NCBI GenBank assembly: GCA_003214175.1
Contig: QCLZ01000003.1
Coordinates: 1 to 24,000, forward strand
Length of the DNA stretch: 24,000 bases
DNA from: Prochlorococcus sp. AG-418-I20
GTDB lineage: Bacteria > Cyanobacteriota > Cyanobacteriia > PCC-6307 > Cyanobiaceae
Direction: 5' to 3'
Part shown: piece after piece, positions 981-23,840 of the stretch
Position numbering within the stretch: position 1 is the stretch's first letter
Layout of the letters: each line of letters begins with the position of its first letter
The notes under the pieces: generated by a model
The model's input: the letters and a program-made list of their open reading frames with translations, nothing else
The model's database searches: none
Told to the model about the DNA's origin: nothing
Position numbers and translations under genes: made by a program

Positions 981-1029
981 AATTGACAGTCGATCTATAT
1001 TTAGGGAGAATCAAATCCCTCTTTATTTA
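981..1029 (+). promoter_or_regulatory. island leader element copy P1 (AATTGACAGTCGATC + TATATT + hairpin AGGGA/TCCCT)
   Basis: Contains the invariant TTGACAGTCGATC, a TANNNT box and a 5-bp GC hairpin. An ATG at 1030 follows 9 nt after the stem. Confidence 0.6.
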
Positions 1030-1116
1030 ATGTCCATTAATACTTTTCTTTTGCTGTTATTAGTTATTGCAAATTACACAAACTTATTTTTAAATTTAAA
1101 AAATAGAAGAGTATGA
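1030..1116 (+). CDS. 28-aa hydrophobic micro-ORF (MSINTFLLLLLVIANYTNLFLNLKNRRV)
   Basis: Starts directly after leader element P1. It is very short and has no homology evidence. Confidence 0.3.
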   Translation: MSINTFLLLLLVIANYTNLFLNLKNRRV

Positions 1117-1166
1117 AACGTTTATTACTTCCAATATCGTTTTCTTTTGTAAAAATTATGTGTTAA
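1113..1166 (+). pseudogene. truncated remnant of a secreted-protein gene (MKRLLLPISFSFVKIMC*)
   Basis: The first 20 nt, ATGAAACGTTTATTACTTCC, closely match the signal-peptide 5' ends at 16347, 18156, 18890 and 19317. The reading frame stops after 17 codons. Confidence 0.45.
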
Positions 1167-1189
1167 TTGAGACTTACTGCTATGAATGA

Positions 1190-1236
1190 TCGAGGCGACA
1201 GGATTCGAACCTGCGACCTAGTGCTCCCAAAGCACT
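1190..1236 (-). repeat. partial tRNA-Pro(UGG) 3' segment (att-type repeat), copy a
   Basis: TCGAGGCGACAGGATTCGAACCTGCGACCTAGTGCTCCCAAAGCACT. The reverse complement gives anticodon loop TTTGGGA, T-arm GCAGG-TTCGAAT-CCTGT and an acceptor 3' strand. There is no 5' half. Confidence 0.9.
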
Positions 1237-1365
1237 CGATCAGCAAATTGCGACAGTACCCATGAGAACGAAGTGAGGCTATGACTTTAGTTTCAAGAAT
1301 CAATATCCATTATGAGTCTCAGGAATTGTTTTATATGTAGCAAAGTATCGCAAAGTTATGCATTT

Positions 1366-1387
1366 GATCGCCCGAGGATCGCCCGCA
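1366..1387. repeat. segment-private tandem repeat GATCGCCCGAG|GATCGCCCGCA
   Basis: 11-bp period with a GC-rich core. The same GATCGCCC tandem recurs at 3247-3268 at the other end of this segment. Confidence 0.8.
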
Positions 1388-1390
1388 AGC

Positions 1391-1417
1391 GAGCTAGTGC
1401 TCTATGGTCACTAGGTC
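1391..1417. other. symmetric att-core-like site GAGCTAGTGC-TCTATGG-TCACTAGGTC
   Basis: Two 10-bp inverted arms flank a 7-bp spacer. The left arm equals the tRNA fragment core GACCTAGTGC with 1 mismatch. Confidence 0.65.
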
Positions 1418-1440
1418 TTATTAATCCATATTTGATTTTG

Positions 1441-1475
1441 TGAACAGTCGATCTGAATTAGAGGTTTACTCCTCT
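1441..1475 (+). promoter_or_regulatory. island leader element copy P2 (variant TGAACAGTCGATC + TGAATT + hairpin AGAGG/CCTCT)
   Basis: Same architecture as the other copies. An ATG at 1476 abuts the stem and opens a 34-codon ORF that overlaps the convergent gene end. Confidence 0.5.
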
Positions 1476-1563
1476 ATGTTTTATCGACTATCAATCATAA
1501 TTAATTTAGCGGTGCACGAATTAAGCGTTTCATATATTCAGAATAAATGGTTGTTTTTTGGAT

Positions 1564-1953
1564 CTAGTGCCAATTATTAATTGCACAAATAGCTTTGAGG
1601 TGCTTCTTAGTTCTCCAAAGACAATGAACCAATCTGCCACTTGGATTTTGGTATGGTTTTAGTCCTTGGTGCAATCCATTTTTAATTCGTTCTAAGTAAA
1701 AAGATGACCTTTCTTTTTGATAAGGATAAACAGTAAGACTTTTGACTAATCCTTTATTACTAGGATCTATTTCCACATCACATGCTCCTAAAATTTCCCA
1801 TTTAATACCCTCTCCAAGTCCACCTACTCCATATTGATTTGATGTCATTTGAAGACATGTAGTTTCTATAGGTTTTGAGAAATCAACTGGGTGAGCAACA
1901 ACAGGTACTAAAAATTGAGAAATGATATGGCTTAGAAATAAGAAGCGTTTCAT
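1564..1953 (-). CDS. secreted hypothetical protein, 129 aa
   Basis: ATG start. The N-terminus MKRFLFLSHIISQFLVPVVAHP is signal-peptide-like, and the 5' nucleotides ATGAAACGCTT are shared with the secreted-protein family. Confidence 0.7.
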   Translation of the reverse strand: MKRFLFLSHIISQFLVPVVAHPVDFSKPIETTCLQMTSNQYGVGGLGEGIKWEILGACDVEIDPSNKGLVKSLTVYPYQKERSSFYLERIKNGLHQGLKPYQNPSGRLVHCLWRTKKHLKAICAINNWH

Positions 1954-2037
1954 TTGATATTCAAATCTTTAGATATTGATTATCATTTTGATACGTTTTG
2001 CATTCAATATTCCGAATTGTCAGCTTAAGTAAAATTA

Positions 2038-2802
2038 ATGGAAATTCTATTTTTAATTATTTGTTTTATTTTTCTTTTTATCCTAGCTGCATTCTCTGAG
2101 GATATGGGATTCTGGGTAGGCACAAAGCAGGTAGCTTTAGAAGAAAACATTAAAAAAAATATTAAAAATATTCTAAAAAATAATAAAGAAAATTCTAGAA
2201 AATCTTATAGAAATCAAAAAAGATTAGTAGGAAACATAAGGAATATTGAAGAGTTAGACGAAATTATGTTTGAGACTGCAAAAAGATTTGCAAGTAGTTT
2301 AGAGGTTAGTAATCAAGATATTCCTTTACTTGGAAATGCTCTAGGGATTGGATATCTACTAAATACCTATTTCACTTTTTTTATTAGAAGTAAAGTTTTT
2401 CCGGAAGATATTTCTCTGGCAGAGGATTTCTACTCAAAAGATAGAGACTTAGTAATGGGTATATCAACTTTTTTTTTAATAGCTAAAAAGAATTATAAAA
2501 AATCTGGATCAACTCTCGCTTTAGGGGTTGAGGGTCTAAAACATGTTTCTTTTTTGATGCATAAGTGCTCAAAGAAAAATCTTGAAGATAGACTTTGCGA
2601 TAAATCTGAGATAATTCCTTTGAAAGAATTATTCAGAGCTTATTCAAGCGAATATGAAAAAGGTGTTGAGACATTAAAGGCAACATATAAAATGATTGAT
2701 ATCAATAGTGAATATGAAAGATACTCAGATGATTTCAACAAATTGCTTTTAGATTTGAAATTATTCGTATTTGATAGTCCATATGATCAAACTAATTATT
2801 AA
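2038..2802 (+). CDS. hypothetical protein with N-terminal TM anchor, 254 aa
   Basis: Long ATG ORF with a hydrophobic N-terminus (ILFLIICFIFLFILAAF). No domain recognised. Confidence 0.7.
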   Translation: MEILFLIICFIFLFILAAFSEDMGFWVGTKQVALEENIKKNIKNILKNNKENSRKSYRNQKRLVGNIRNIEELDEIMFETAKRFASSLEVSNQDIPLLGNALGIGYLLNTYFTFFIRSKVFPEDISLAEDFYSKDRDLVMGISTFFLIAKKNYKKSGSTLALGVEGLKHVSFLMHKCSKKNLEDRLCDKSEIIPLKELFRAYSSEYEKGVETLKATYKMIDINSEYERYSDDFNKLLLDLKLFVFDSPYDQTNY

Positions 2803-2831
2803 ATAAACTAGATATAAAATACTTAGAGGAT

Positions 2832-3068
2832 TTAGCTCCAAAGAGATGAAAAGCCAATCACAATAATCGCAATTTGCAAAACCCCAGCAGATAAAGCCAG
2901 AAGTTTATTACCTCCATCAATCCCATTCTTTTCAACATCACCTCTGACCATTTCAGTAACGAACCAACTAACTATTACAAGTAATATAAATCCACCTAAT
3001 TGACTATCACCCCAGTATTTATATATACCCACTAGAGCAAAAATTCCTGAAAAAAATCCTGTCCCCAT
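2832..3068 (-). CDS. small multi-pass membrane protein, 78 aa
   Basis: ATG ORF with about three hydrophobic stretches. Confidence 0.6.
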   Translation of the reverse strand: MGTGFFSGIFALVGIYKYWGDSQLGGFILLVIVSWFVTEMVRGDVEKNGIDGGNKLLALSAGVLQIAIIVIGFSSLWS

Positions 3069-3246
3069 TTATTAAGTAATCAACTTTAAACTTTTAATTA
3101 ATTTATAGCGATATTGGCATTATTGGTAATGCCTGCAATATAAGTTATTGTCCTCTCAAATAAATAAAATGTTTACTACTTGCACAATCCAATCTTTGAT
3201 AGAAGAGGGCGATGCACCATGCAAAGCTATGCAAGGTATTGCAAAT

Positions 3247-3268
3247 GATCGCCCAGAGATCGCCCAGA
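3247..3268. repeat. segment-private tandem repeat GATCGCCCAGA x2
   Basis: Perfect 11-bp tandem. It is the partner of 1366-1387, and the upstream CAAAG..TATGCAA context is also shared. Confidence 0.8.
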
Positions 3269-3295
3269 GAGTATTTAAGAATCGTGAGAAGTCAA

Positions 3296-3340
3296 TCGGG
3301 GCGACAGGATTCGAACCTGCGACCTAGTGCTCCCAAAGCA
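3296..3340 (-). repeat. partial tRNA-Pro(UGG) 3' segment, copy b
   Basis: TCGGGGCGACAGGATTCGAACCTGCGACCTAGTGCTCCCAAAGCA. Confidence 0.9.
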
Positions 3341-3467
3341 TTCGATCTATTATTTGAGATTATAAAACAAAACTAAGCTATGACTAGGTTATAACCAAGA
3401 GAGTAGAACGAGTTTGAGTCTCAATATTGTACAAAGTTATAGTTCTATATACAAAATATATAACCTC

Positions 3468-3490
3468 AGCTCCTCCTTTAGCTCCCCCGG
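3468..3490. repeat. segment-private tandem repeat AGCTCCTCCTT-T-AGCTCCCCCGG
   Basis: The partner ACTCCCCCTAC|AGCTCCCCTTT lies at 7644-7665 at the other end of the segment. Confidence 0.7.
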
Positions 3491-3493
3491 AGT

Positions 3494-3520
3494 GACCTAG
3501 TGCCTCATGTTAACTAGGTC
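3494..3520. other. symmetric att-core-like site GACCTAGTGC-CTCATGT-TAACTAGGTC
   Basis: 10-bp inverted arms flank a 7-bp spacer, located 4 nt after the tandem repeat. Confidence 0.7.
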
Positions 3521-3554
3521 GAAGAAATGATGTTTTTAACTCTGGACCATACAC

Positions 3555-4469: not shown

Positions 4470-4604
4470 ATCCCATAAGTTTCTAAATTAATACTAGTTT
4501 TTAATAATTTAATTAAGTTACTAAGTTGTTGATTCAAGACCGTTTGACCAATTTATTAATTGACAATCTATTTACAATGTATAAATGAACCCCTTCTTTT
4601 ATTT

Positions 4605-4736
4605 ATGAAAGAAACAGGATTTAACTTAACTCAAGGAATTGCTTTGCTACTTTTGAAAACATTAAACTTGCCTGTTAATTACGTTCTAAATTTAATAATT
4701 TACATAACTAACCCTAGAAATAATATTGGTTATTAA
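4605..4736 (+). CDS. hypothetical 43-aa peptide
   Basis: ATG ORF downstream of TTGACA(4560)-N-TATAAA, a diverged relative of the leader element. Confidence 0.3.
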   Translation: MKETGFNLTQGIALLLLKTLNLPVNYVLNLIIYITNPRNNIGY

Positions 4737-7713: not shown

Positions 7714-7735
7714 AGTATGAATTGGTTTTTAAGAG

Positions 7736-7787
7736 TCGGGGCGACAGGATTCGAACCTGCGACCTAGTGCCCCCAAATCACTAGTTC
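7736..7787 (-). repeat. partial tRNA-Pro 3' segment, copy c (variant, fully symmetric core)
   Basis: TCGGGGCGACAGGATTCGAACCTGCGACCTAGTGC-CCCCAAA-TCACTAGTTC. The loop is altered and the right arm is extended into a 10-bp inverted repeat. Confidence 0.85.
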
Positions 7788-7881
7788 AGAAGACCCTATA
7801 TCTACGATTTGAAGCTATAACAACAGTTATAAGCCCTTTTTTCTTCTAAAACCTTATAAGACTTTCTAATTCTTATTGGAT

Positions 7882-8525: not shown

Positions 8526-8554
8526 GCCAAATTAGGTAATCGCTGAAAAGCCAG

Positions 8555-8590
8555 TCGAGGATACATGATTCGAACCTGCGACCTAGTGCT
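8555..8590 (-). repeat. degenerate partial tRNA-Pro 3' segment, copy j
   Basis: TCGAGGATACATGATTCGAACCTGCGACCTAGTGCT. The T-arm and core are retained, the acceptor part has decayed, and the anticodon loop is replaced by TTTTATT. Confidence 0.7.
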
Positions 8591-8616
8591 TTTATTTAAA
8601 GAGTAAAAATATTATT

Positions 8617-8660
8617 GATTGACAGTCGATCTAACTTAGAGGGATAAAACCCTCTTTTTT
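8617..8660 (+). promoter_or_regulatory. island leader element copy P3 (GATTGACAGTCGATC + TAACTT + AGAGGG-ataaaa-CCCTCT + T-run)
   Basis: Canonical copy. There is no plus-strand gene downstream, and it faces the 3' end of the convergent gene 8659-8889. Confidence 0.7.
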
Positions 8661-8889
8661 AATGGTTATGTTTGTGCATACTGCATGGCATCCATTTATC
8701 ACCCATTTGATGAGCGCCTTCACAACCAAATTTATAGGCCTCTTTTTCTGCCTCTTCTTTCGTATTAAATAACATCGGCATTTCCATTTCTTTTTCTACT
8801 GGTTTATTTGAACATCCGAATATAAAAATTGATATAGAAAGAAAAGGAATAAGAGAAATAAAGTGTTTCAAAATTAATTCATAAATCAA
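8659..8889 (-). CDS. small lipoprotein with C/H-rich C-terminus, 76 aa (or 70 aa)
   Basis: Lipobox FIFGC and C-terminal GCEGAHQMGDKWMPCSMHKHNH. The start is TTG at 8889 or an in-frame TTG at 8871 (MKHFISL...). Confidence 0.65.
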   Translation of the reverse strand: MIYELILKHFISLIPFLSISIFIFGCSNKPVEKEMEMPMLFNTKEEAEKEAYKFGCEGAHQMGDKWMPCSMHKHNH

Positions 8890-8953: not shown

Positions 8954-8999
8954 GATTGACAGTCGATCTAAAGTAGAGGGATAAAACCCTCTTTTTTTT
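8954..8999 (+). promoter_or_regulatory. island leader element copy P4 (GATTGACAGTCGATC + TAAAGT + AGAGGG-ataaaa-CCCTCT + T8)
   Basis: Canonical copy. The T-run runs straight into the ATG at 9000. Confidence 0.7.
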
Positions 9000-9059
9000 A
9001 TGGATAGAAGATTTATTGCTGAAAAGATTATGACTCTAATTATTTCTTTGATTGGTTAA
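9000..9059 (+). CDS. 19-aa micro-ORF (MDRRFIAEKIMTLIISLIG)
   Basis: The only support is its position directly after leader element P4. Confidence 0.2.
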   Translation: MDRRFIAEKIMTLIISLIG

Positions 9060-9707: not shown

Positions 9708-9847
9708 CTACTCATAAAAAAAAGGATTTTAGATCAAAATAAAATATATGAATAAAGAACATTGGCTAATAAATTCCAGTAGATCAAGAGTAAAAAGATT
9801 CACAATAAATAAACAGAACAAAGATAAATTCTTCGAATATATGTTTG

Positions 9848-9889
9848 TTGACAGTAGATATAAAATTAAGTGAAATTAGGCTGTCTTTT
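9848..9889 (+). promoter_or_regulatory. diverged leader element copy P12 (TTGACAGTAGATA + TAAAAT)
   Basis: 10 of 13 positions of the invariant block are kept and a TANNNT box is present. A GTG start follows at 9890. Confidence 0.4.
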
Positions 9890-10381
9890 GTGAAGAAATT
9901 TTTCCTCCCTTTTCTTGTTGTTCTTGCTTTGCCTTCGTCTGTTAATGCTGGATATTCATCAAGCATTGATTTAATGACTGATGAAACAAAAATTAGGATT
10001 TTTCACAATTCTATTACCAAAGTGTCAAATTCAATAGGTATTCCTGAGACGGCAACAATCTGGATAAGATGCAGTCTTAAAAATGGTAAGACTACAAATC
10101 TAGAAGCATTTATTAAAACTCCTACATATAACTCAGATAATAATAAAGTTGGATTACGTTGGGATTCTGGAGAACCTATAAGAACTTCTTGGAACGAGTC
10201 AACATCGGGTACATCACTATTCAACCGAGATCCAAAAAAATTTATTAACAAGTTATTAGAATCTAATACATTAGTTTTCCAATGGACTCCTTATCAATCC
10301 ATTCCTCAAGCGGTTAAATTTGATTTAATAAAAATGAAGCCAGATATTATTCGAGCTAAAAATGATGGATGTGAATACTAA
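9890..10381 (+). CDS. secreted hypothetical protein, 163 aa (GTG start)
   Basis: Starting at GTG 9890 gives the signal peptide (M)KKFFLPFLVVLALPSSVNA|GY. The ORF-track TTG at 9845 lies inside the leader element. Confidence 0.65.
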   Translation: MKKFFLPFLVVLALPSSVNAGYSSSIDLMTDETKIRIFHNSITKVSNSIGIPETATIWIRCSLKNGKTTNLEAFIKTPTYNSDNNKVGLRWDSGEPIRTSWNESTSGTSLFNRDPKKFINKLLESNTLVFQWTPYQSIPQAVKFDLIKMKPDIIRAKNDGCEY

Positions 10382-10736: not shown

Positions 10737-10758
10737 AGTACGACTTGGTGTTTAAGAG

Positions 10759-10805
10759 TCGGGGCGACAGTATTCGAACCTGCGACCTAGTGCTCCCAAA
10801 GCACT
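10759..10805 (-). repeat. partial tRNA-Pro(UGG) 3' segment, copy d
   Basis: TCGGGGCGACAGTATTCGAACCTGCGACCTAGTGCTCCCAAAGCACT, with one substitution in the T-arm. Confidence 0.9.
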
Positions 10806-10893
10806 TAATAGCCGTAGTTCAGCACTAGGTTTTAAAGCTATATCTAATTATTTGCTTGGTTCTGCGAAGTTTGTCGTGACAAATAAAGTAATA

Positions 10894-10915
10894 TTTGTCC
10901 GCAATTTGTCCGCAA
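10894..10915. repeat. segment-private tandem repeat TTTGTCCGCAA x2
   Basis: Perfect 11-bp tandem. The identical tandem recurs at 13330-13351 at the other end of the segment. A partial third copy TTTGTCGTGAC lies at 10870. Confidence 0.85.
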
Positions 10916-11829: not shown

Positions 11830-12126
11830 ATGGATTTCAGGATTTTACTTGTTATTACACCAATAATATTCTCATGGATATTTACAGTCTTTTGGTTAGG
11901 TAGATGGGATGTATTTAGATTAACGCCACTAGGATTACCAAAGAAGGGAGTAGCTCCTTTTGAAAATTATCAAGTATGGGAAGATTCAGCATTAATTCCT
12001 GATACTGGCAGACCATCCGAAGGTTATCCAGTATTTACTGTAAGAACCGCAGCAGTTAATGCCCTAGGGATTCCAACCGTTTTCTTCCTTGGAGCAATAT
12101 TGGCAATGCAGTTTAAATCTTATTAA
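11830..12126 (+). CDS. membrane protein, 98 aa (first of tandem paralogs)
   Basis: ATG ORF. The N-terminus [29 protein letters not shown] parallels the next gene. Confidence 0.65.
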
Positions 12127-12138
12127 TAGGAAATCTTG

Positions 12139-12324
12139 ATGGATATTAGATTTTTAATTGTTGTAGCACCATTTTTAATCGCATTTTTTTATACCTTATT
12201 TTGGCTAAATAAATGGGGTGCTTTTAATTCTACGAATAATAATTTGCCAAAAAATATTTCTCTTAAAAATGAATCAATAGAACAAAATTATATTTTAGAG
12301 AATATCTTTTTAACAAAAAATTAA
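12139..12324 (+). CDS. membrane protein, 61 aa (second tandem paralog)
   Basis: The ATG at 12139 gives MDIRFLIVVAPFLIAFFYTLFWLNKWGAF, which aligns to the N-terminus of 11830-12126. The C-terminus is unrelated. Confidence 0.55.
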   Translation: MDIRFLIVVAPFLIAFFYTLFWLNKWGAFNSTNNNLPKNISLKNESIEQNYILENIFLTKN

Positions 12325-12909: not shown

Positions 12910-13323
12910 ATGATCAATAAATCTCAAAAAGTATCCTCATTAGAAAATATCTACAAGAATTTGGAATCTGGAATGCCAGAAAATAAATCTATTAAAGACT
13001 ATGCTCTCCCTAATGCGAGACAGTGGTTAGGGGGAAGATATATAGCCCTATGGGTATTACCTATTTATTTAATTAGTAAAATTGCTAAATTCGCAGCTTC
13101 CTCTGCATTTATAAAACCATATTCTCCAATTAAAAATGGCCCTTCTTATAAAAGACCAGAAACTTTGTACACCTCTTTAAAAGGTGTATTTAAAGGAGAA
13201 GACCATTTAAGATTTTTTGATCATAGGTTTATCGCTATTTGGGTATTGCCTTTTGCTTTAACTGGAATTGTTTTTGAAGTGCTTTTTATATCTCCTGCTA
13301 AGAATACTTTCCCTTTCAATTAA
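12910..13323 (+). CDS. membrane protein with internal duplication, 137 aa
   Basis: ATG ORF in which RYIALWVLPIYLISKI and RFIAIWVLPFALTGIV are repeated halves. Confidence 0.55.
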   Translation: MINKSQKVSSLENIYKNLESGMPENKSIKDYALPNARQWLGGRYIALWVLPIYLISKIAKFAASSAFIKPYSPIKNGPSYKRPETLYTSLKGVFKGEDHLRFFDHRFIAIWVLPFALTGIVFEVLFISPAKNTFPFN

Positions 13324-13329
13324 GCACGT

Positions 13330-13351
13330 TTTGTCCGCAATTTGTCCGCAA
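13330..13351. repeat. segment-private tandem repeat TTTGTCCGCAA x2
   Basis: Identical to 10894-10915. It sits just before the terminator-like flank of fragment e. Confidence 0.85.
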
Positions 13352-13422
13352 TCATTGAGGACAGAATTTAAGCAATAAAAAAGACAGGCTGGGAAACCTT
13401 TCTATGACTTGGATTATTAGAG

Positions 13423-13469
13423 TCGGGGCGACAGGATTCGAACCTGCGACCTAGTGCTCCCAAAGCACT
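13423..13469 (-). repeat. partial tRNA-Pro(UGG) 3' segment, copy e
   Basis: TCGGGGCGACAGGATTCGAACCTGCGACCTAGTGCTCCCAAAGCACT. Confidence 0.9.
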
Positions 13470-13556
13470 TAACAAGCCCAGTTGGACACTATGTCTACAG
13501 GCCATGACTAAATAGTTGCGGGGTATTGCAGGATTTAACATGACAAACCATGGTGA

Positions 13557-13578
13557 ATTTGTCGGCGATTTGTCGGCG
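13557..13578. repeat. segment-private tandem repeat ATTTGTCGGCG x2
   Basis: Perfect 11-bp tandem. Partner TTTGTCGGCT|TTTTGTCGGCT lies at 15357-15377. Confidence 0.85.
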
Positions 13579-13691
13579 ATTTGAAAGTAATTTTCGGTTA
13601 ATTTAAATTTTAGAACCAATTAAAAGATATTTAATTGACATCGCATTCATATTTGTAAAATATGGATTTATACCGATAGGCAAAAAAGAGA

Positions 13692-15308
13692 TTGAGAATT
13701 GTTGAGATTAAAAGATCTTTAAAGATTATATTTTTAGTCTGCCTTGTTCCAACTGGAATTGTTTTGGCAGATACTTTTACTGGTACAGATATTTCAATTG
13801 AATCGGAACTAAATGGTGGAACAGTTATTGATTTCTCGAATGGCTCAAATGGAACTTCGGGAACATCGTTTCAAACCTATTCTGAAGGTGACGTAACTTT
13901 TTCAAACGAAGGTGGTATTGGTGAGAATAATGGTTCAATAAATATTGATGATTCTAGAAGTGGGTCATCTAATACGACAGGATTTTACTTGCAAAATACT
14001 ACTGATGATTATGGTGTCAGATTTACGAATCCTAGTAAATCTCTGAAGTTTGAATTTACAAACCCAGTTTCAGCTTTTGGATTTAATTTAGGCAATAATG
14101 TAAATATTTGGGATTTAAAAGCTTACGATTCTAGTAACACACTTCTAGAGACTTACAATTTACCCGCATTAGAGTCAACGAACAATAATGGTGAATATTT
14201 TGGTATTTCAAGTGACTCAAATAATATCAGTTATGCAACATTAATTGATCGGCTAAATACTGGGCAGGGGGCAAATGGGAATTGGATTTTTATTGATAAC
14301 TTTACTTATTTAATTTTATTTCGTAATGAGTGGTTACAACCTTTTGCCGCTATGCAAAATGTTGGTTTAACTTCAATAAAAAATAATAAAGATTTAGTGT
14401 TAGCAAAAGCTGGAGAATGCAATGATTATGGATGGGTTATTGATGAAACAGATTTCTGCTTATATAGCACTACTAGTAATTCAATTTCTAACGTAAATGG
14501 TAATAGCAATTATGGTGGATATGATTACGCAAACTTTAATACATCATTAATTATAGAGAAAACTTTTAATGAAGAATGGAAAGCTGGAATTTCTTACGGA
14601 GTTGGCTCGTCTAATTTAGATAATTTTAATTTCTCTGGAACAACTGCTAATTTTCATTCCACAAATACACATTATTCAATTTATGGATTTAAACAAGTTA
14701 GTAAAAAATTTAGTTTAAAAGGGTTGATTGGAGTCTCCGATTTTGATTATGCAGGCAATAGAAATTACCTAAATAAGACCGCTGAATCCATTTACGATGC
14801 TGATGGTTATACAGTAGAAATAGTAGGTGTTTGGGATTTTAATAAATTTATTAAGGAATCTAATACTCTTATCAATGTTAAACCCTCAATAGGAATGGCC
14901 TTTGCGGCTCATAATCAAGATGGATTTAGTGAATCTGGTAGTGGACATTTAGTTACCATCAAATCTAATCGAGCAGAATCTCTTCTTTTAAAAACAGGTT
15001 TAAAAGTTGAAAACCAAATACTAATGGAAGGAGGTAAGTGGATATTGATCCCTTCATTTAATTTGAATTATGAATTTGATGCTCTTGCTAGTAGTAACAA
15101 TAGAAAAATTAGCGGATTTCTTCAAGGGAGCACAGATGAGACTACATTTGTATCATCTAAAACTTTAGGAGAACACAATGTTTCAGCCAACGTTGGTGCT
15201 GATTTCATTTGTACTGAGAATTTAAGTTTTAATCTAAATGCAAAATATGTTTTAACAGATGGAGGTAATCAACATTCTTTTGGTGGAGGGTTCAGATTCG
15301 TATTCTAA
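13692..15308 (+). CDS. autotransporter-like outer-membrane protein (type V beta-barrel C-terminal domain), 538 aa
   Basis: Signal peptide KIIFLVCLVPTGIVLA|DT and a G/N/S/T-rich passenger. The C-terminal ~280 aa show the alternating beta-strand pattern, a P-x-x-G-x-A-x-x-x-x-x-DGFSESG motif, and a terminal GGGFRFVF. The start codon is TTG. Confidence 0.7.
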   Translation: MRIVEIKRSLKIIFLVCLVPTGIVLADTFTGTDISIESELNGGTVIDFSNGSNGTSGTSFQTYSEGDVTFSNEGGIGENNGSINIDDSRSGSSNTTGFYLQNTTDDYGVRFTNPSKSLKFEFTNPVSAFGFNLGNNVNIWDLKAYDSSNTLLETYNLPALESTNNNGEYFGISSDSNNISYATLIDRLNTGQGANGNWIFIDNFTYLILFRNEWLQPFAAMQNVGLTSIKNNKDLVLAKAGECNDYGWVIDETDFCLYSTTSNSISNVNGNSNYGGYDYANFNTSLIIEKTFNEEWKAGISYGVGSSNLDNFNFSGTTANFHSTNTHYSIYGFKQVSKKFSLKGLIGVSDFDYAGNRNYLNKTAESIYDADGYTVEIVGVWDFNKFIKESNTLINVKPSIGMAFAAHNQDGFSESGSGHLVTIKSNRAESLLLKTGLKVENQILMEGGKWILIPSFNLNYEFDALASSNNRKISGFLQGSTDETTFVSSKTLGEHNVSANVGADFICTENLSFNLNAKYVLTDGGNQHSFGGGFRFVF

Positions 15309-15427: not shown

Positions 15428-15449
15428 AGTATGACTTGGTTTTTAAGAG

Positions 15450-15499
15450 TAGGGGCGACAGGATTCGAACCTGCGACCTAGTGCTCCCAAAGCACCCGC
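15450..15499 (-). repeat. partial tRNA-Pro(UGG) 3' segment, copy f (long form)
   Basis: TAGGGGCGACAGGATTCGAACCTGCGACCTAGTGCTCCCAAAGCACCCGC. Identity extends through the whole anticodon stem. Confidence 0.9.
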
Positions 15500-15623
15500 T
15501 ACGCAAAATGCGACAGCCCCCATGAGAAACAAGTGAGGCTATGGCTTATTAGTTGATATTAAATGAAAATTGATGAGTCTTAAAAATTAGCAAGATATAG
15601 CAAGGTGGTGCATAAATAAGCAA

Positions 15624-15645: not shown

Positions 15646-15650
15646 CAAGC

Positions 15651-15677
15651 GACCTAGTGCCCTAAGAGCACTAGCTC
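15651..15677. other. symmetric att-core-like site GACCTAGTGC-CCTAAGA-GCACTAGCTC
   Basis: 10-bp inverted arms (1 mismatch) flank a 7-bp spacer. Confidence 0.7.
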
Positions 15678-15697
15678 GTAGAATTTAGAAATTTATT

Positions 15698-15741
15698 GAT
15701 TGACAGTCGATCTAACATAGAGGGATAAAACCCTTTTTATA
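15698..15741 (+). promoter_or_regulatory. island leader element copy P5 (GATTGACAGTCGATC + TAACAT + AGAGGG-ataaaa-CCCTTT)
   Basis: Canonical copy. The ATG of the lipoprotein gene follows at 15742. Confidence 0.75.
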
Positions 15742-15969
15742 ATGAAAAGAATTTATTTATTTCCTCTTTTTCTTCTACTAATAACAGGCTGTGAATATCT
15801 TTCTTTATCTCAAGCTAAAAAAGCTTGTTATCGATGGGGTCTTAATAGTGATATTGAACGTGGTAATTGGGATTGTAAACTTAACAAATCTAATATGGAA
15901 TACCTATTAATTAATGAATACTCTGACGATGGCATATACGATCCTAAAGTAATAAAAAAATTTAAATAA
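15742..15969 (+). CDS. small lipoprotein, 75 aa
   Basis: MKRIYLFPLFLLLITGC carries a lipobox (LITGC). Confidence 0.7.
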   Translation: MKRIYLFPLFLLLITGCEYLSLSQAKKACYRWGLNSDIERGNWDCKLNKSNMEYLLINEYSDDGIYDPKVIKKFK

Positions 15970-15995
15970 TATAGCTTTTCATTGATATTTATTTC

Positions 15996-16037
15996 TTGAC
16001 AGTCGATCTAACATGGAGGGATAAAACCTTTTTTTTT
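15996..16037 (+). promoter_or_regulatory. island leader element copy P6 (TTGACAGTCGATC + TAACAT + GGAGGG-ataaaa-CC + T-run)
   Basis: The right arm of the hairpin has partly decayed into the T-run. An ATG follows at 16038. Confidence 0.7.
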
Positions 16038-16343
16038 ATGTCTTGCTCTGTTACCTCTGTGTTTACTTTTAAGATTGAAAGTACTTTCGATGAATGGTCT
16101 GCAATATTTGATAGTGCAGAAGCTGATAAAAGGCATTCTGAATTTGAAATTAAGCCTTTATTTAGAGGAGTAAGTAAAGAAGATCCTCAAAAAGTTATTG
16201 TTATTCATCAAGCTCCAGAAGGTAATGTTCAAAAGTTTGTGGAAGCAAACGGTGACTGGATGGCAACCCATAGAGTTGACTTATCAACGATGGAGGAAAC
16301 GTCTTGGACTGCTTCATTAAGAAAAGATAGTTGTTGTGATTAA
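16038..16343 (+). CDS. hypothetical cytoplasmic protein, 101 aa
   Basis: Start moved to the ATG at 16038, because the ORF-track TTG at 15996 is the TTGACA of the leader element. Confidence 0.65.
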   Translation: MSCSVTSVFTFKIESTFDEWSAIFDSAEADKRHSEFEIKPLFRGVSKEDPQKVIVIHQAPEGNVQKFVEANGDWMATHRVDLSTMEETSWTASLRKDSCCD

Positions 16344-16346: not shown

Positions 16347-16859
16347 GTGAAACGCTTACTACTTACACTTCTAGCTGCTATCTCCTTACCTAATCCTATT
16401 AATGCAGAAGAATTACCAAAAAGACTTTATGGTTCATGGCAATTTACTTCAACAGCTGGTGAAGCTGTAATTGGAGAACTCACAATCACTAAAGAGTATG
16501 TAGCGTATGGATCATCTCTTAATGGAGTTTGTAGTGACTCATACAAGGTTAAAAGATTAAAAGATGATAATGACTATCCTAATAATATGGTTGAAGATAC
16601 AAGAGGTTATATCTCCTATAGGACCTATAGATTAATTCTTGATAATCCTGAGAATTGTGTCCATAAAGATGATACGCTCCAAATATCTTTTGAACAGATT
16701 CCAATAGGATCCTTTAAAAATATTTATCCTGATGAACCGAAGTTTATTAATAAAATTGCCTTGGTTACTTATATTGATGGGAGAGTAACTGGTTGGTTTT
16801 CAAATGGATTTAAACTAACGGAATATATTAGAAAACCTTGGTCATGGGGAGAATTATGA
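16347..16859 (+). CDS. secreted hypothetical protein, 170 aa (GTG start)
   Basis: Signal peptide (M)KRLLLTLLAAISLPNPINA|EE, belonging to the conserved signal-peptide family. Confidence 0.7.
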   Translation: MKRLLLTLLAAISLPNPINAEELPKRLYGSWQFTSTAGEAVIGELTITKEYVAYGSSLNGVCSDSYKVKRLKDDNDYPNNMVEDTRGYISYRTYRLILDNPENCVHKDDTLQISFEQIPIGSFKNIYPDEPKFINKIALVTYIDGRVTGWFSNGFKLTEYIRKPWSWGEL

Positions 16860-17803: not shown

Positions 17804-17848
17804 GATTGACAGTCGATCTAAAATTGAAGGGATAAAACCCTCTTTTTT
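17804..17848 (+). promoter_or_regulatory. island leader element copy P7 (GATTGACAGTCGATC + TAAAAT + GAAGGG-ataaaa-CCCTCT + T-run)
   Basis: Canonical copy. The ATG at 17849 abuts the T-run. Confidence 0.75.
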
Positions 17849-18151
17849 ATGCCATACGATAAAGACGGAGAATATTATAGGAAGGCTGTAGTACCTCAAA
17901 AAAAAGAGGATTCTGTAGATAATTTTATAAAAAAATCAAAAAAGCAAGCTAATATTCTAGCCATTCTAATTTTAGCAGGAATTGCAGGTGGTCTCGGAGC
18001 TATTATTTTCTGGCCTAAGAAAGAACTTCCAAAACCTAATATGAATTTACAAGGAGCAGAAAGATATTATGATCTGTGCCTGCAGTTGCGAAATTATCAA
18101 GGTATATCAAAAGAAGGATGTGAGACTATTCTTGAAAATCCTGATTTATAA
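17849..18151 (+). CDS. single-pass membrane protein, 100 aa
   Basis: ATG ORF with a central TM helix ILAILILAGIAGGLGAIIFW. Confidence 0.65.
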   Translation: MPYDKDGEYYRKAVVPQKKEDSVDNFIKKSKKQANILAILILAGIAGGLGAIIFWPKKELPKPNMNLQGAERYYDLCLQLRNYQGISKEGCETILENPDL

Positions 18152-18155
18152 ACTA

Positions 18156-18446: not shown

Positions 18447-18488
18447 AACAAATTAAACGCATAATACTTGCCCCGCTATATTAATTAC

Positions 18489-18533
18489 GATTGACAGTCG
18501 ATCTAATATAGAGGGATCAAACCCTCTTTTTTT
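18489..18533 (+). promoter_or_regulatory. island leader element copy P8 (GATTGACAGTCGATC + TAATAT + AGAGGG-atcaaa-CCCTCT + T-run)
   Basis: Canonical copy. The ATG at 18534 abuts the T-run. Confidence 0.75.
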
Positions 18534-18893
18534 ATGCGTAAATCATTAGTAACTTTATTAGCTGCATTTACTTTACCCACTGCTGTTAATGCCTCTGTTC
18601 CTTTCCTTTATGTAAATGGTGGAACCATGGGCGATTATGAAAGTGTGAATGAATGCTTAAACATAGCAATGAGAGAAATGAAAATGGCAGGATTTACAAA
18701 AATTGTTAAATCTGGTCTTGACAAAAAAAACAAAAAACAGGCTACTATTATTGCCGATCATTCATGGAGACCAGCCACAATAACTTATAGATGTTTTGAA
18801 GATCTAAAGGTATATTCGTGGGGAGTTTCAGCAATAGTTAATGATGATGCTTACGAAACTTATATTGATATGAATAATGCCTTTGGTAAATGA
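18534..18893 (+). CDS. secreted hypothetical protein, 119 aa
   Basis: Signal peptide MRKSLVTLLAAFTLPTAVNA|SV. Confidence 0.7.
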   Translation: MRKSLVTLLAAFTLPTAVNASVPFLYVNGGTMGDYESVNECLNIAMREMKMAGFTKIVKSGLDKKNKKQATIIADHSWRPATITYRCFEDLKVYSWGVSAIVNDDAYETYIDMNNAFGK

Positions 18894-20886: not shown

Positions 20887-20958
20887 GAGTTTTTAAGACA
20901 AATGAGAAATAAAAAAGGCAACCTTGGGATGGCTTCCTATGACTTGGTTTTGATTGAG

Positions 20959-21008
20959 TCGGGGCGACAGGATTCGAACCTGCGACCTAGTGCTCCCAAA
21001 GCACCCGC
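20959..21008 (-). repeat. partial tRNA-Pro(UGG) 3' segment, copy g (long form)
   Basis: TCGGGGCGACAGGATTCGAACCTGCGACCTAGTGCTCCCAAAGCACCCGC. Confidence 0.9.
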
Positions 21009-21092
21009 AAGATTAAAACTATAATTGAGACTTAAAGCTTTATCAGGCTTTTAGAGAAAAAAGTTTGGACTTATTCGGACTTATATGTTCGA

Positions 21093-21113: not shown

Positions 21114-21133
21114 ATAATTTAAGAAGTTATTAA

Positions 21134-21175
21134 TTGACAGTCGATCAAAAATAAGGGGCAATTCGCTCCTTTTTT
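21134..21175 (+). promoter_or_regulatory. island leader element copy P9 (TTGACAGTCGATC + AAAAAT + AGGGGC-aattc-GCTCCT + T-run)
   Basis: Both arms of the hairpin differ from consensus but still pair. It faces the 3' end of the convergent gene 21209-21586. Confidence 0.6.
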
Positions 21176-21208
21176 GGTGAATAGATTTTTAATTTAAGTG
21201 AATATGGG

Positions 21209-21586
21209 TTATTTCCATAAAGAAAGTCCCAAACGAATATATGGCTTAAGCTGCCAACCCCAAAAACCAAAACCAAATACTAAGAATTGAGGAAATATAC
21301 GAATTATCAATAAAATAATGCCACCTCTTCCTCTTGCTTTTGAAGAAATATTACTTATTTCATTTGAATCAAATATTGGAGGTTCATAAGTGCCCCATAA
21401 ATGGAAACCTTGCAAAACCATTATCAAACAAGAAAAGGCACCGATAATTGAGATTAATAATAGAGCTTTAGCTTTTATAGATCCTTTTTTTATAGATCCT
21501 TTTTCCATTTCTGGATCAAAAGCTCCGCAAACAATTAAAGATAGAAACCCTATTAGAGCAAACCATGCTGCAGTTGATCCGTTCAT
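21209..21586 (-). CDS. multi-pass membrane protein, 125 aa
   Basis: ATG ORF with several TM helices. It contains an in-frame 15-bp tandem duplication (KKGSI KKGSI). Confidence 0.6.
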   Translation of the reverse strand: MNGSTAAWFALIGFLSLIVCGAFDPEMEKGSIKKGSIKAKALLLISIIGAFSCLIMVLQGFHLWGTYEPPIFDSNEISNISSKARGRGGIILLIIRIFPQFLVFGFGFWGWQLKPYIRLGLSLWK

Positions 21587-21673
21587 GAATTAAGAAATAG
21601 TTATTAAGTAAAATAATCCCAATAAAGAATTTCAAATCTATAAATTTATAAATTAAGATAATTTATTTTTCAC

Positions 21674-22258
21674 TTATAAATTAATGTTATTTCTTTCCTT
21701 TTCTAACATTTTTATTAGGTATTCATATGCTTCATTAACTAGCTTAAATTCCTCTTCTGCATTTTTATCATTTTTATTTAGATCAGGATGCCATTGTCTA
21801 GCTTCTTTGCGATAAGCCTTCTTAAGCTCAGATTCATCAAAATCTTCTGAAAGATCAAAGAAGGAAATATAATCTAAATCTTCAAGACTTCTTTGCGGCC
21901 TATTTCTAATTTTATCTTGTTCATCCTTTTTCTCTTTAACCTCCTTTTTTTTAAATTTACTTTCATCTACAACATAATTTTCTTTTATAGTGATTTTTAG
22001 TTTTTTTATTGATTCTCTTAATTTTATATTCTCATAACCAACAAAAAATATTACGCCTACAAGTAAAAATTGCCCAAATTGAAGGATTGGATCTAATCTC
22101 CATCCTTGATAAAAAAGAATTAAACCGCATACCCAAAAAATTGGAACAAGAAATGGGTCATATTTAGTAGATATTGATTTCTTAAAGAAAGGAACAAAAC
22201 CAGCCAATATCAAGGCGATACCGACTATGCTGGCCCAATTTAATGAAGCGTTAAACAT
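21674..22258 (-). CDS. membrane-anchored J-domain (DnaJ-like) protein, 194 aa
   Basis: N-terminal TM helices. The C-terminal J domain reads [38 protein letters not shown] and carries the HPD motif. Confidence 0.85.
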
Positions 22259-22350
22259 ATATATATAACCCTCTAGAGAATAAGTTAAAAGTTATTTAAT
22301 TAAGGATAAATATAGAACTTATAGAAATCAATATTTTGAAAATAAATTAT

Positions 22351-22370
22351 TATGGGCACTTTTTGGGCAC
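22351..22370. repeat. segment-private tandem repeat TATGGGCAC|TTTTTGGGCAC
   Basis: Partner of 21093-21113. Confidence 0.8.
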
Positions 22371-22422
22371 TCTACTCTTTAGGTTAAATATATTATTGGC
22401 TGAGACTTACTGCTATAACTGA

Positions 22423-22472
22423 TCGGGGCGACAGGATTCGAACCTGCGACCTAGTGCTCCCAAAGCACCCGC
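22423..22472 (-). repeat. partial tRNA-Pro(UGG) 3' segment, copy h (long form)
   Basis: TCGGGGCGACAGGATTCGAACCTGCGACCTAGTGCTCCCAAAGCACCCGC. The left flank GAGACTTACTGCTATAACTGA is shared with copy a. Confidence 0.9.
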
Positions 22473-22596
22473 CCTCCAATTTGAGACAGTTACCTAAATA
22501 AACAAGTCAGGCTATTGCATGTTAGTTGCAATATCAGAGGAGTTGTGAGTCTCAAAAAGAGGTCAAAGGTATACAAAATTATCCATAAATATACAA

Positions 22597-22618
22597 TTCC
22601 TCGCCCGTTTGTCGCCCG
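22597..22618. repeat. segment-private tandem repeat TTCCTCGCCCG|TTTGTCGCCCG
   Basis: Partner ATCCTCGCCC|ATTCCTCGCCC lies at 23494-23514. It is followed by the half-core GACCTAGTAC at 22624-22633. Confidence 0.75.
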
Positions 22619-22659
22619 CCTCCGACCTAGTACTTTTATTCAAAGAGTAGAATATTATT

Positions 22660-22695
22660 GATTGACAGTCGATCTAAAATAAGAGAAAACAATAT
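22660..22695 (+). promoter_or_regulatory. island leader element copy P10 (GATTGACAGTCGATC + TAAAAT, no hairpin)
   Basis: The palindrome and TANNNT box are intact and the hairpin is absent. The ATG at 22696 lies 15 nt after the box. Confidence 0.65.
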
Positions 22696-22860
22696 ATGTT
22701 TAATCCTGATTACAAAGTTAACCCAAACGCAAAAGAGGAATTTACAGCTAAACTTTTCGATATGATTAGAGCTTATGAAGAGGATATACCTAGACTTGAG
22801 ATAGCAAAGGCACTACGTAATTTCGCAAAAATGTTGGAAAAAATAGAGGAAGGGAATTGA
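22696..22860 (+). CDS. hypothetical helical protein, 54 aa
   Basis: Hand-found ATG..TGA ORF (MFNPDYKVNPNAKEEFTAKLFDMIRAYEEDIPRLEIAKALRNFAKMLEKIEEGN), directly downstream of P10. Confidence 0.5.
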   Translation: MFNPDYKVNPNAKEEFTAKLFDMIRAYEEDIPRLEIAKALRNFAKMLEKIEEGN

Positions 22861-23087
22861 CTTTTTATCCTAAATTATCTAAAAACCTTACTCCAAAGGA
22901 TTTAAAACTTTTTTTTAAAAGTATATTTTTTCTAATATCAATAATATCAATAATATCTATTGGTATTGGAACAATATTTTTTATATATTTAAATGTTCAA
23001 TGCGAAGAAGTTTTTTTAAGAGGTCAAAATACTTTCATTTGTGGAGAGGATAGAGAAAAATTAAAAAAGAATAATTACAACTTTTAA
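22857..23087 (+). CDS. single-TM protein, 76 aa (TTG start overlapping upstream stop)
   Basis: TTGA start/stop overlap with 22696-22860. TM helix FFLISIISIISIGIGTIFFIY. Confidence 0.45.
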   Translation: MTFYPKLSKNLTPKDLKLFFKSIFFLISIISIISIGIGTIFFIYLNVQCEEVFLRGQNTFICGEDREKLKKNNYNF

Positions 23088-23118
23088 TGTATGTTTTTTA
23101 TAAGTTTAAAAAGCTAAC

Positions 23119-23289
23119 CTATTTAATAAATAGAGGTGTCATGAAAAAAGATATGATTCCAGTCGATATAAAGTAAGCGTTATTAAATTCCTTTTTACAT
23201 CCGCAATCTTTAAAGAGGAGAACACCTTGAATTGCTCCAATAATATAAACAACAATAAAGCTTATAACCCAAGCAGACAAACTATTCAT
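23119..23289 (-). CDS. two-TM peptide, 56 aa
   Basis: Hand-found ATG..TAG ORF (MNSLSAWVISFIVVYIIGAIQGVLLFKDCGCKKEFNNAYFISTGIISFFMTPLFIK). Confidence 0.4.
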   Translation of the reverse strand: MNSLSAWVISFIVVYIIGAIQGVLLFKDCGCKKEFNNAYFISTGIISFFMTPLFIK

Positions 23290-23493
23290 AATTAATACTA
23301 TTTATTTATTAAATAATAAATAAATATTAAACGTTAGCAAATAAAATTTTCTCAAGATTCACTTCTAAATGTCGAAAAAAACTGTTTACAAATAAACAAA
23401 AGATTATTGCAGTAATCTTAAATGCTTTTGAAATTGCAATAATTAGCCTTTTTTCGGGCGACAGACCCTCCAAAGTTATCCAAAGATATACAA

Positions 23494-23514
23494 ATCCTCG
23501 CCCATTCCTCGCCC
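23494..23514. repeat. segment-private tandem repeat ATCCTCGCCC|ATTCCTCGCCC
   Basis: Partner of 22597-22618. It is preceded by the shared CAAAGTTATCCAAAGATATACAA context. Confidence 0.75.
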
Positions 23515-23541
23515 GCAGAGATTTTAAGACAAATGAGAAAT

Positions 23542-23566
23542 AAAAAAGCGAGTTGGGAGACTCGCT
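23542..23566 (-). terminator. terminator travelling with the tRNA-Pro fragment
   Basis: On the minus strand 3' of fragment i, a perfect stem AGCGAGT/ACTCGCT is followed by a T-run. Confidence 0.65.
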
Positions 23567-23589
23567 ACTATGACTTGGTTTTTAAATGG

Positions 23590-23639
23590 TCGGGGCGACA
23601 GGATTCGAACCTGCGACCTAGTGCTCCCAAAGCACCCGC
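23590..23639 (-). repeat. partial tRNA-Pro(UGG) 3' segment, copy i (long form)
   Basis: TCGGGGCGACAGGATTCGAACCTGCGACCTAGTGCTCCCAAAGCACCCGC. Both flanks are homologous to those of copy g. Confidence 0.9.
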
Positions 23640-23724
23640 AAGAATAAGACTATAACTGAGACTTATAGCCATAACAGTACTTTTCAGGAATAAAGTATGG
23701 ACTAAAGTGGACTAGTTTCGATTC

Positions 23725-23746
23725 ATTTGAGGGAATTTTGAGGGAA
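23725..23746. repeat. tandem repeat ATTTGAGGGAA|TTTTGAGGGAA
   Basis: Occupies the same position after fragment i as 21093-21113 does after fragment g. Its partner would lie beyond the window end. Confidence 0.7.
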
Positions 23747-23790
23747 TTAAAAATAAGCTATTTTTAAATAAATTTTGCATAAGATTTAAT

Positions 23791-23840
23791 TTGACAGAAG
23801 ATCTACAATTAGGGAAAATTGGCTGAGGTTTTATCCAAAA
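23791..23840 (+). promoter_or_regulatory. diverged leader element copy P11 (TTGACAGAAGATC + TACAAT)
   Basis: 11 of 13 positions of the invariant block are kept and a TANNNT box is present. The downstream structure is unclear. Confidence 0.4.

Follow-up and report, generated by a model that had tools for sequence, protein, structure and literature searches.

In mycobacteriophage L5, the stoperators that Brown et al. are said to have described in 1997 are 13-base-pair (bp) asymmetric repressor sites that occupy intergenic spacers in one orientation. Integrons hold one-orientation arrays of small, mostly unrelated open reading frames (ORFs) in shuffled order, with a structured repeat (attC) between them, and their cassettes are promoterless. 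Short intergenic palindromic repeats able to supply promoters or terminators are represented by the Correia elements of Neisseria, the REP and BIME sequences of enterobacteria and the repeats of halovirus HF2 (PMC8707807). Here we describe an element that shares features with each of these, found in repeated copies in 24,000 nucleotides (nt) of Prochlorococcus sp. AG-418-I20 (the whole stretch of DNA analysed, henceforth referred to as the window). It is a module of roughly 45 bases, consisting of a 13–15-bp near-palindrome (the box), an abutting hexamer of the form TAnnnT and usually a hairpin followed by a run of T, with a start codon directly after it. It precedes many small genes of unrelated kinds, both in the variable islands of high-light Prochlorococcus and in a small number of cyanophage contigs. 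We favour, with roughly even chances of being right and judging from sequence comparison, the view that it would be a portable self-insulating promoter leader for the gene cassettes of the Prochlorococcus flexible genome. The parts of the element are familiar ones (a -10 promoter, an operator-like dyad, an intrinsic terminator). We found no mention of the box in the openly searchable literature, which also yielded nothing relevant on island promoter motifs, in the tycheposon preprint (10.1101/2020.12.28.424599) or in the paper of Steglich et al. on Prochlorococcus non-coding RNA, and the box and hairpin strings were not found in the supplements of Steglich 2008 and Read 2017.

The likeness to stoperators lies in the dozens of near-identical 13-bp sites, placed in short intergenic regions of mobile DNA and co-oriented with transcription, and also in the concept of one protein silencing both initiation and read-through. 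However, the L5 sites belong to a phage genome and are bound by the phage's own repressor, whereas the repressor of the element is hypothetical only and its sites come together with a -10 box, a hairpin and a start codon. The array of small shuffled ORFs recalls integrons, but the element stands 5′ of its gene, tracks that gene and carries a promoter-like box. No integron integrase was found (the window ORFs scanned contain no recombinase domain), attC architecture is absent, and the variable part of the repeat, instead of belonging to the 3′ end of a cassette, tracks the downstream gene (4.5 versus 7.7 mismatches, see below). Unlike the Correia, REP and halovirus repeats, the element is in strict register with a start codon and has one core that is hyper-conserved across many genomes. 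As for a miniature inverted-repeat or REP-like nature, the flanks of the copies share no termini beyond the unit and show no target-site duplication.

Two more general kinds of site complete the comparison. Cyanobacterial promoters that lack a -35 and have an adjacent operator (of the LexA, Fur or NtcA type) are alike in the TAnnnT, in the short dyad at a fixed distance and in the many dispersed targets, whereas the box of the element touches the -10 with zero spacing and its targets are flexible island genes and not a pathway. Operator consensus sequences in cyanobacteria are RGTAC-N3-DGTWCB for LexA, GTA-N8-TAC for NtcA, the HLR1 direct repeat for RpaB and an AT-rich 7-1-7 box for Fur, and to our knowledge the box fits none of these. 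Intrinsic terminators share with the element a GC-rich stem of 6–7 bp, a loop of 5–6 nt and a run of 6–9 T. In contrast to ordinary ones, the hairpin here is nested between the -10 and the next start codon, has the predicted transcription start inside it and is co-inherited with the downstream gene.

Box, hexamer and hairpin across the family

The box of the window, TTGACAGTCGATC, occurs there 13 times (9 exact and 4 with two mismatches; 12 of the 13 on the plus strand) versus 0.23 expected by chance, and none of 100 shuffles gave 13 matches. One genome per bacterial species was also scanned for TTGACAGTCGATCT. Among the matches listed, most were chance 14-mers, and all those with hexamer, hairpin and ATG came from low-GC Prochlorococcus single-cell genomes or from strain MIT 9322, which has them at about 355.4–355.8 kilobases of NZ_CP138961 in locus L177. 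About 130 distinct copies could be compiled from 56 Prochlorococcus loci taken from among the matches listed (loci and contigs are cited here by their L numbers), and a covariance model built from 20 copies with the class I hairpin described below gave 132 matches in 424 kilobases of Prochlorococcus loci. A motif and covariance scan of this kind had been proposed together with the original prediction, which was made from the letters of the window alone; what emerged is a widespread Prochlorococcus family, conserved across more than 40 single-cell genomes, with true copies in three IMG/VR contigs (L053, L060 and L012). Within a locus the copies are mostly co-oriented (5 of 5 in L121, L115, L174 and L171; mixed in L105 and L188).

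The twelve copies first listed in the window are all present where they had been placed and all lie on the plus strand, and a decayed inverted copy (1482–1494, minus strand) and a weak copy at 4560 can be added to them. The hexamer is TAnnnT in 10 of the 12, with T at position 6 in every one. The hairpins agree with the earlier description, being absent from the copy at 22660 (box 22662) and weak at 9848, 23791 and 15996, and so do the start codons and ORFs at 15742, 16038, 17849, 18534 and 22696 and the GTG at 9890. Further ORFs that follow copies start at 1030 (28 amino acids) and 9000 (19 amino acids), both conserved in other genomes. One figure had to be corrected: the dyad GATTGAC-A-GTCGATC, reported as symmetric at 13 of 14 arm positions, is symmetric in 6 of its 7 pairs, i.e. 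at 12 of 14 positions, and has in this the dyad symmetry of an operator.

Circularity was avoided by anchoring a set of copies on the two hairpin sequences and not on the box. In this hairpin-anchored set the box is found at a fixed distance for 68 of 69 hairpins, each of its positions is conserved in at least 85%, and TAnnnT directly abuts it in 65 of 68 copies; the G-run of the hairpin begins 3 nt after the hexamer in 58 of 68, and in the same number its left arm ends 6–7 nt past the hexamer. Position -1 is A in 90%, though it was not selected for, and position -2 is G in just 55%. A perfect 7-1-7 palindrome, TTGACAGTCAATC, is the commonest variant of the box (15 of 131 copies).

A sigma-70 type -10 hexamer, with A at its second and T at its sixth position, is present in the same 65 of 68 hairpin-anchored copies and in the 10 of 12 window copies. 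No -35 hexamer was found 16–18 nt upstream of the -10, positions -15 to -4 carrying at most 0.7 bit each, and a promoter scan paired a second hexamer with a single copy, the one at 23791. Promoters without a -35 are normal in Prochlorococcus, where they take the form TAnnnT. The TTGACA contained in the box was considered as a true -35 and rejected: the conserved hexamer is just 7 nt away from it, and at 17–19 nt downstream the available hexamers (GGATAA/GATAAA and GGCAAT/CAATTA) are without the A2/T6 signature in one hairpin class or the other.

In 61 of 130 copies (47%) an ORF of at least 30 amino acids begins 20–30 nt past the hexamer, versus 135 of 4400 control TAnnnT sites in the same loci (3%), a 15-fold link. 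A Shine-Dalgarno sequence is not seen in the family-wide sequence analysis, the start codon coming directly after the element.

Two classes of hairpin, AGAGGG-ATAAAA-CCCTCT (class I) and AAGGGGC-AATTA-GCTCCTT (class II), differ from each other by paired changes. The hairpin is stable (-4 kcal/mol or better) in 64% of the copies and missing or weak in about one third. Mean folding energy is -5.4 kcal/mol versus -2.1 for shuffled sequences, and in an alignment that was fitted by the model 89.8% of cells are paired, with 80 double-sided changes versus 38.5 ± 4.1 in shuffles. The features of an intrinsic terminator (GC-rich stem of at least 5 bp, loop of 3–8 nt, run of T/U) are all present, with a T content of 61–88% at positions +36 to +42, and a scan for such terminators listed the hairpins at 8638, 8975, 18510 and 21153. 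Copies without a hairpin keep the box, the hexamer and a nearby ATG.

A gene family whose products begin MNTLIT... provides a side observation on this point. In two of its loci (L115, about 2454–2483, and L190, about 3304–3333 on the minus strand) the hairpin is precisely absent, leaving TAAACT-TTTTT-ATG, and the start site is predicted to coincide with the A of the ATG, a leaderless geometry. In a third locus (L144) an MNTLIT... gene has a class II hairpin.

A putative insulated promoter and its proposed regulator

In the mechanism that we propose, the host RNA polymerase would recognise the hexamer as the -10 box of a promoter lacking a -35, and the near-palindrome would be an operator located at about -27 to -13. 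The operator would be bound by one dimeric protein, most simply a repressor barring access of the polymerase, and in this way a single operator could bring many unrelated island genes under common control. Transcription would start 6–8 nt past the hexamer, either on the final G of the left arm or within the hairpin loop. Given where the left arm ends, a transcript started at the usual distance would be without that arm, and the cassette's own mRNA, unable to form the hairpin, would escape termination. Its leader would be short (about 15–20 nt), U-rich and without a Shine-Dalgarno sequence, nearly leaderless in the hairpin-less variants, and may serve initiation dependent on ribosomal protein S1, which has been discussed for Prochlorococcus by Read et al. 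(PMC5607370). Read-through transcripts from upstream would include the complete hairpin together with the U-tract, and would be stopped immediately ahead of the following start codon. In 67 of 119 cases the copy is preceded by the end of a same-strand ORF, with a median distance to the box of 30 nt (48 of the 67 within 50 nt, often within 10 nt). This leaves no room for a second terminator, and the hairpin of the element would be the sole terminator between such genes. A terminator nested just past a -10 box would be a very compact way to free a mobile gene from the transcriptional context of its landing site. Start site, termination and binding of the box are all predicted here from the sequence of the element.

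Several observations weigh against this reading. There is the one third of copies in which the hairpin is absent or weak. The covariation is mostly a single split into two classes, in an alignment fitted to the structure, and the T-run gives high pairing in slid-partner controls too. The hairpin is only weakly commoner behind same-strand genes, a mere trend (33/52 versus 32/67, odds ratio 1.9, p = 0.10). Next to the hexamer, position +19 from the start of the box is A in about 60% of copies and, TAnnnTA being symmetric, these also offer a TAnnnT on the minus strand, where a leftward promoter may lie. The box is able to fold as a weak RNA hairpin (-2.7 kcal/mol). Two window copies (8617, with its box at 8619, and 21134) face the 3′ ends of convergent genes, as had been pointed out, and are without a gene to drive, and no regulator gene was found among the window ORFs scanned. 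The compact insulator and promoter of the original prediction is partly supported. It keeps the geometry of box, TAnnnT and hairpin, the terminator features and the missing Shine-Dalgarno sequence, and is to be revised on two points: the hairpin is optional, and it belongs to the downstream cassette and not to the gene that it would terminate.

For the protein that would bind the box there is a lead only. MarR-type regulators related to the P-SSP7 gene 0.7-like PSSP7_011 have been reported in MED4 island 1 and in MIT0604 (PMC9692554). We found homologues of PSSP7_011 in 2 of the approximately 56 element loci (L200, 6021–6380, minus strand, and L183, 5404–5742, plus strand; 42% and 35% identity respectively), the one in L183 with an in-frame stop. 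The box was not found upstream of either, and such homologues are common in marine metagenomes.

Prochlorococcus is the most abundant photosynthetic organism, and its islands hold most of its ecologically relevant variation. The element touches on two open questions. One is how a cell with very few regulators expresses its island genes, and the other is by what route single genes pass between cells and phages. The hyper-conserved box gives a handle on both, as a bait for the regulator (GATTGACAGTCGATCTAAAAT), as a model with which the regulon can be listed in genomes and metagenomes and as a marker of cassette junctions.

Cassette exchange and competing explanations

The downstream gene is shared by 155 pairs of copies, and in just 17 of these is the upstream flank shared as well. 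Mismatches in the 18-nt hairpin segment number 4.5 when the downstream gene is shared, 7.7 when the upstream flank alone is shared and 8.0 in unrelated pairs, a pattern indicating that the module belongs to the gene it precedes, with breakpoints at or left of the box. One gene family may carry class I, class II or no hairpin in different genomes, which indicates exchange among copies. Comparison of the copies shows that the module travels with its downstream gene and that its invariant part marks the junctions of reshuffling. At the box at 983, homology to three loci ends at 981–986 and homology to two others begins at 980. Overall, the ends of homology blocks fall near boxes in 15 of 192 cases versus 3.6% expected, a modest enrichment of about twice.

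Two of the three IMG/VR contigs are fragments of T4-like cyanomyoviruses. Genes for a UvsX-like recombinase, a DnaB-like replicative helicase and MazG are found on L053, and in its first part (1–1110) three copies bracket host-like small genes, the last of them just 5′ of uvsX, out of frame with the ATG that the element itself carries. L060, with genes for PhoH and an exonuclease, has one copy (516–565), and the gene family behind it is one that is found behind the element in host islands too. In cultured cyanophage records neither class consensus was matched, and scans of IMG/VR for the perfect-palindrome box and for both hairpins alone gave chance matches only, L053 excepted. We regard the element as essentially a host feature that occasionally moves into cyanomyophages with its cassette. 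A promoter of a phage RNA polymerase, or an element borne by cyanophages, was rejected in view of its absence from all cultured phage records.

Regulation and exchange could be joined in one proposal, which we think unlikely, namely a cassette system with the element as its defining site. One protein would silence newly acquired genes at dozens of sites per genome, acting on initiation and on read-through as with phage stoperators, and the invariant 20–47 bp would be the crossover point for single-gene cassettes among islands, tycheposon-like elements and cyanophages. If true, this joint role in silencing and crossover would amount to an integron-like logic without an integron.

A narrower proposal makes recombination the primary role: the box or the 45-bp unit would be a recombination site or homology anchor delimiting the cassettes that pass between islands, tycheposon-like elements and phages, whether through a dedicated recombinase or through homologous recombination over the 20–47 bp that they have in common. 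This is compatible with a promoter role, and as the primary function we hold it quite unlikely. Upstream and downstream flanks do assort almost independently (155, 57 and 17 pairs), and the hexamer variant shows an equally weak link to either of them (0.29 and 0.28 versus a background of 0.18), which puts the breakpoints around the box. To this are added the junction exactly at box 983, the same gene with differing hairpins in different genomes, the co-orientation of copies within loci and the three copies that bracket host-like genes upstream of uvsX in L053. But the enrichment of breakpoints near boxes is just that of about two times, and in a hypervariable island every spacer between genes is a breakpoint. 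Besides the missing recombinase domain in the window ORFs scanned, the 7-1-7 dyad lacks the overlap region of 6–8 bp found in the core sites of tyrosine recombinases. Furthermore, a role in recombination leaves unexplained the fixed -10 hexamer and the distance to the ATG.

The element might also act at the level of RNA, as a leader or attenuator, and this we consider just as improbable. Transcription would in this case start upstream of the box, which would itself fold into a small hairpin in the RNA, and the other hairpin, together with the U-tract, would serve as a conditional terminator, entry into the downstream gene being controlled e.g. by an RNA-binding antiterminator or by temperature. 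The folding of the box already mentioned agrees with this, the more so as the position breaking the dyad (T/G) becomes a legal G-U pair, on the plus strand only; the terminator is placed directly before the start codon, many copies trail same-strand genes with almost no spacer, and putative Shine-Dalgarno-like purines (AGAGGG, AAGGAG) sit in the left arm of the hairpin. However, the variants of the box are non-compensatory (TTAACA, GTAGATC and GCCGATC break pairs), and an invariant TA...T with a variable middle is the signature of a DNA -10, for which there is no RNA rationale. The consensus RNAs fold as two independent hairpins, with no competing structure as in antitermination of the ribonucleic antiterminator (RAT) type. 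The hairpin-less variants, including those with leaderless geometry, still hold box and hexamer. Some copies lie just 47–48 nt from the start of a divergent gene, which leaves scant room for another promoter. The curated models of Rfam 15 gave zero matches at any copy, even at E up to 1, and identity with a known RNA family was rejected accordingly.

Least probable, indeed very unlikely, is that the element is an ordinary intrinsic terminator of the upstream gene, spread by duplication, with box and hexamer hitch-hiking or forming a selfish repeat: its hairpin and T-run are those of a terminator, two window copies end convergent gene pairs with no gene downstream and the copies at 1441, 9848 and 23791 are decayed, but conservation is much higher in box and hexamer than in the hairpin, and both persist after its loss, the hairpin segment tracks the downstream and not the upstream gene, the link to start codons exceeds the control manyfold, conservation extends over the more than 40 single-cell genomes and into phage contigs, and neither terminal inverted repeats nor target duplications are seen around the unit.

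The copies and their surroundings in the window

Copies of the element and partial tRNA-Pro copies in the window (scores are matches to the covariance model)
Feature	Position	Strand	Composition	Score (bits)
Copy 1	981..1032	+	box 983-995, TATATT 996-1001, hairpin 1003-1020 (AGGGA/TCCCT), ATG 1030	43.5
ORF of copy 1	1030-1116	+	28 amino acids, MSINTFLLL..., conserved in L100	
Copy 2, decayed	1439..1478	+	box TGAACAGTCGATC, TGAATT, hairpin 1460-1475, without T-run	
Inverted decayed copy	1451..1497	-	box 1482-1494 (TTGATAGTCGATA)	28.2
Weak diverged copy (family D13)	4558..4607	+	TTGACAATCTATT TACAAT, ATG 4605 (ORF 4605-4736)	
Copy	8617..8664	+	canonical hairpin 8638-8655, T-run	78.2
Copy	8954..9002	+	box 8956-8968, TAAAGT, hairpin 8975-8992, ATG 9000	73.5
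Decayed copy	9846..9892	+	TTGACAGTAGATA TAAAAT, degraded class II hairpin, GTG 9890	
Copy	15698..15744	+	box 15700-15712, TAACAT, hairpin 15720-15735, ATG 15742	69.9
Copy	15994..16040	+	box 15996-16008, TAACAT, weakened hairpin, T-run, ATG 16038	59
Copy	17804..17851	+	box 17806-17818, TAAAAT, hairpin 17826-17842, ATG 17849	61
Copy	18489..18536	+	box 18491-18503, TAATAT, hairpin 18510-18527, ATG 18534	73.6
Copy	21132..21180	+	AAAAAT, class II hairpin 21153-21171, T-run	35.1
Copy without hairpin	22660..22698	+	box 22662-22674, TAAAAT, ATG 22696	35.9
Decayed copy	23789..23840	+	TTGACAGAAGATC TACAAT, weak hairpin, without ORF	
tRNA-Pro partial copies	1189-1253, 3295-3359, 7735-7799, 8554-8618, 10758-10822	-		
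tRNA-Pro partial copies, continued	13422-13486, 15449-15513, 20958-21022, 22422-22486, 23589-23653	-		

The genes that follow the copies are varied. The 19-amino-acid ORF at 9000 (MDRRFIAEKIMTLII...) belongs to a family found behind the element in 10 loci, and the ORF from the GTG at 9890 encodes 163 amino acids with a signal peptide. At 15742 starts a lipoprotein-like product of 75 amino acids, its copy being preceded by a tRNA-like fragment (15648–15683), and at 16038 a DUF3764 protein leads a run of three genes; the upstream gene stops 26 nt before the box of the latter copy and, in the case of the 100-amino-acid ORF at 17849, 17 nt before it. The ATG at 18534 opens a secreted protein of 119 amino acids. 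The hairpin-less copy at 22660 has its ATG just 15 nt past the hexamer, before an ORF of 54 amino acids, and is preceded by a degenerate tRNA fragment. Of the two copies that end convergent pairs, that at 8617 is directly right of a truncated tRNA-Pro fragment (8554–8618) and faces the stop codon of a DUF3721 gene (8659–8889, minus strand), and that at 21132, with no plus-strand gene downstream, faces the 3′ end of a gene at 21209–21586 (minus strand). The arrangement of the weak copy at 4558 recurs in L147. The two decayed copies at 1441–1494 face each other and have the hairpin at 1460–1475 in common.

With its approximately 30% G+C, the window is a low-GC Prochlorococcus genomic island. Its genes are small (DUF1330, DUF3721, DUF3764, PAP-fibrillin, an RRM protein, an autotransporter and several secreted proteins), a content typical for such islands. 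The 3′ half of tRNA-Pro(UGG) occurs in ten partial copies, all on the minus strand (families D1, D7 and D8), most of them trailed on that strand by a stretch of about 50 nt that contains a terminator (family D7); these copies look like serial attachment-site remnants of integrated elements. ARAGORN called zero tRNA genes in the window, and Rfam scored 15450–15520 as a full-length tRNA above threshold (38.6 bits). The tRNA-linked hypervariable islands of high-light Prochlorococcus are thought to have been built by serial integration of tycheposon-type elements (10.1101/2020.12.28.424599), and the window matches them. For four of its copies of the element, a tRNA fragment lies 20–45 nt to the left, which places them at the edge of a former insertion.

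Tandem direct repeats of TTTGTCCGCAA (two units, with the variant TTTGTCGGCGA) adjoin tRNA fragments at 10882–10915, 13318–13351 and 13546–13579, and similar repeats, GTCCACAC and GTGGACGAG, are found in the phage contig L053 (450–470) and in another island (L127, about 3036–3080). They could be candidate binding sites for an integrase or a replication protein. The element itself was considered as an arm site of a tycheposon integrase and rejected, with 4 of 13 copies adjoining tRNA fragments and the direct repeats fitting better.

Among the other genes of the window, two adjacent ORFs (11830–12126 and 12136–12324) encode small membrane proteins, the first with a C-terminus that matches the cytochrome b559 (PsbE/PsbF) family (PF00283, 32 bits), and a protein of 538 amino acids (13692–15308) has an autotransporter beta-domain (PF03797, E = 2e-28). 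A set of paralogous secreted proteins begins with MKRLLLPLLAA...AVNA (gene starts at 16347, 18156, 18534, 18890 and 19315). Remnants of this family are found at 18450–18490 and 1495–1530 (minus strand) of the window and in at least 10 other loci (e.g. L164, L190 and L202). In many loci a remnant of the N-terminus of 10 codons (MKRLLLAPLY-stop), together with ATACGA, stands directly 5′ of the box before differing genes, and could represent a longer subfamily of the element or a recombination scar.

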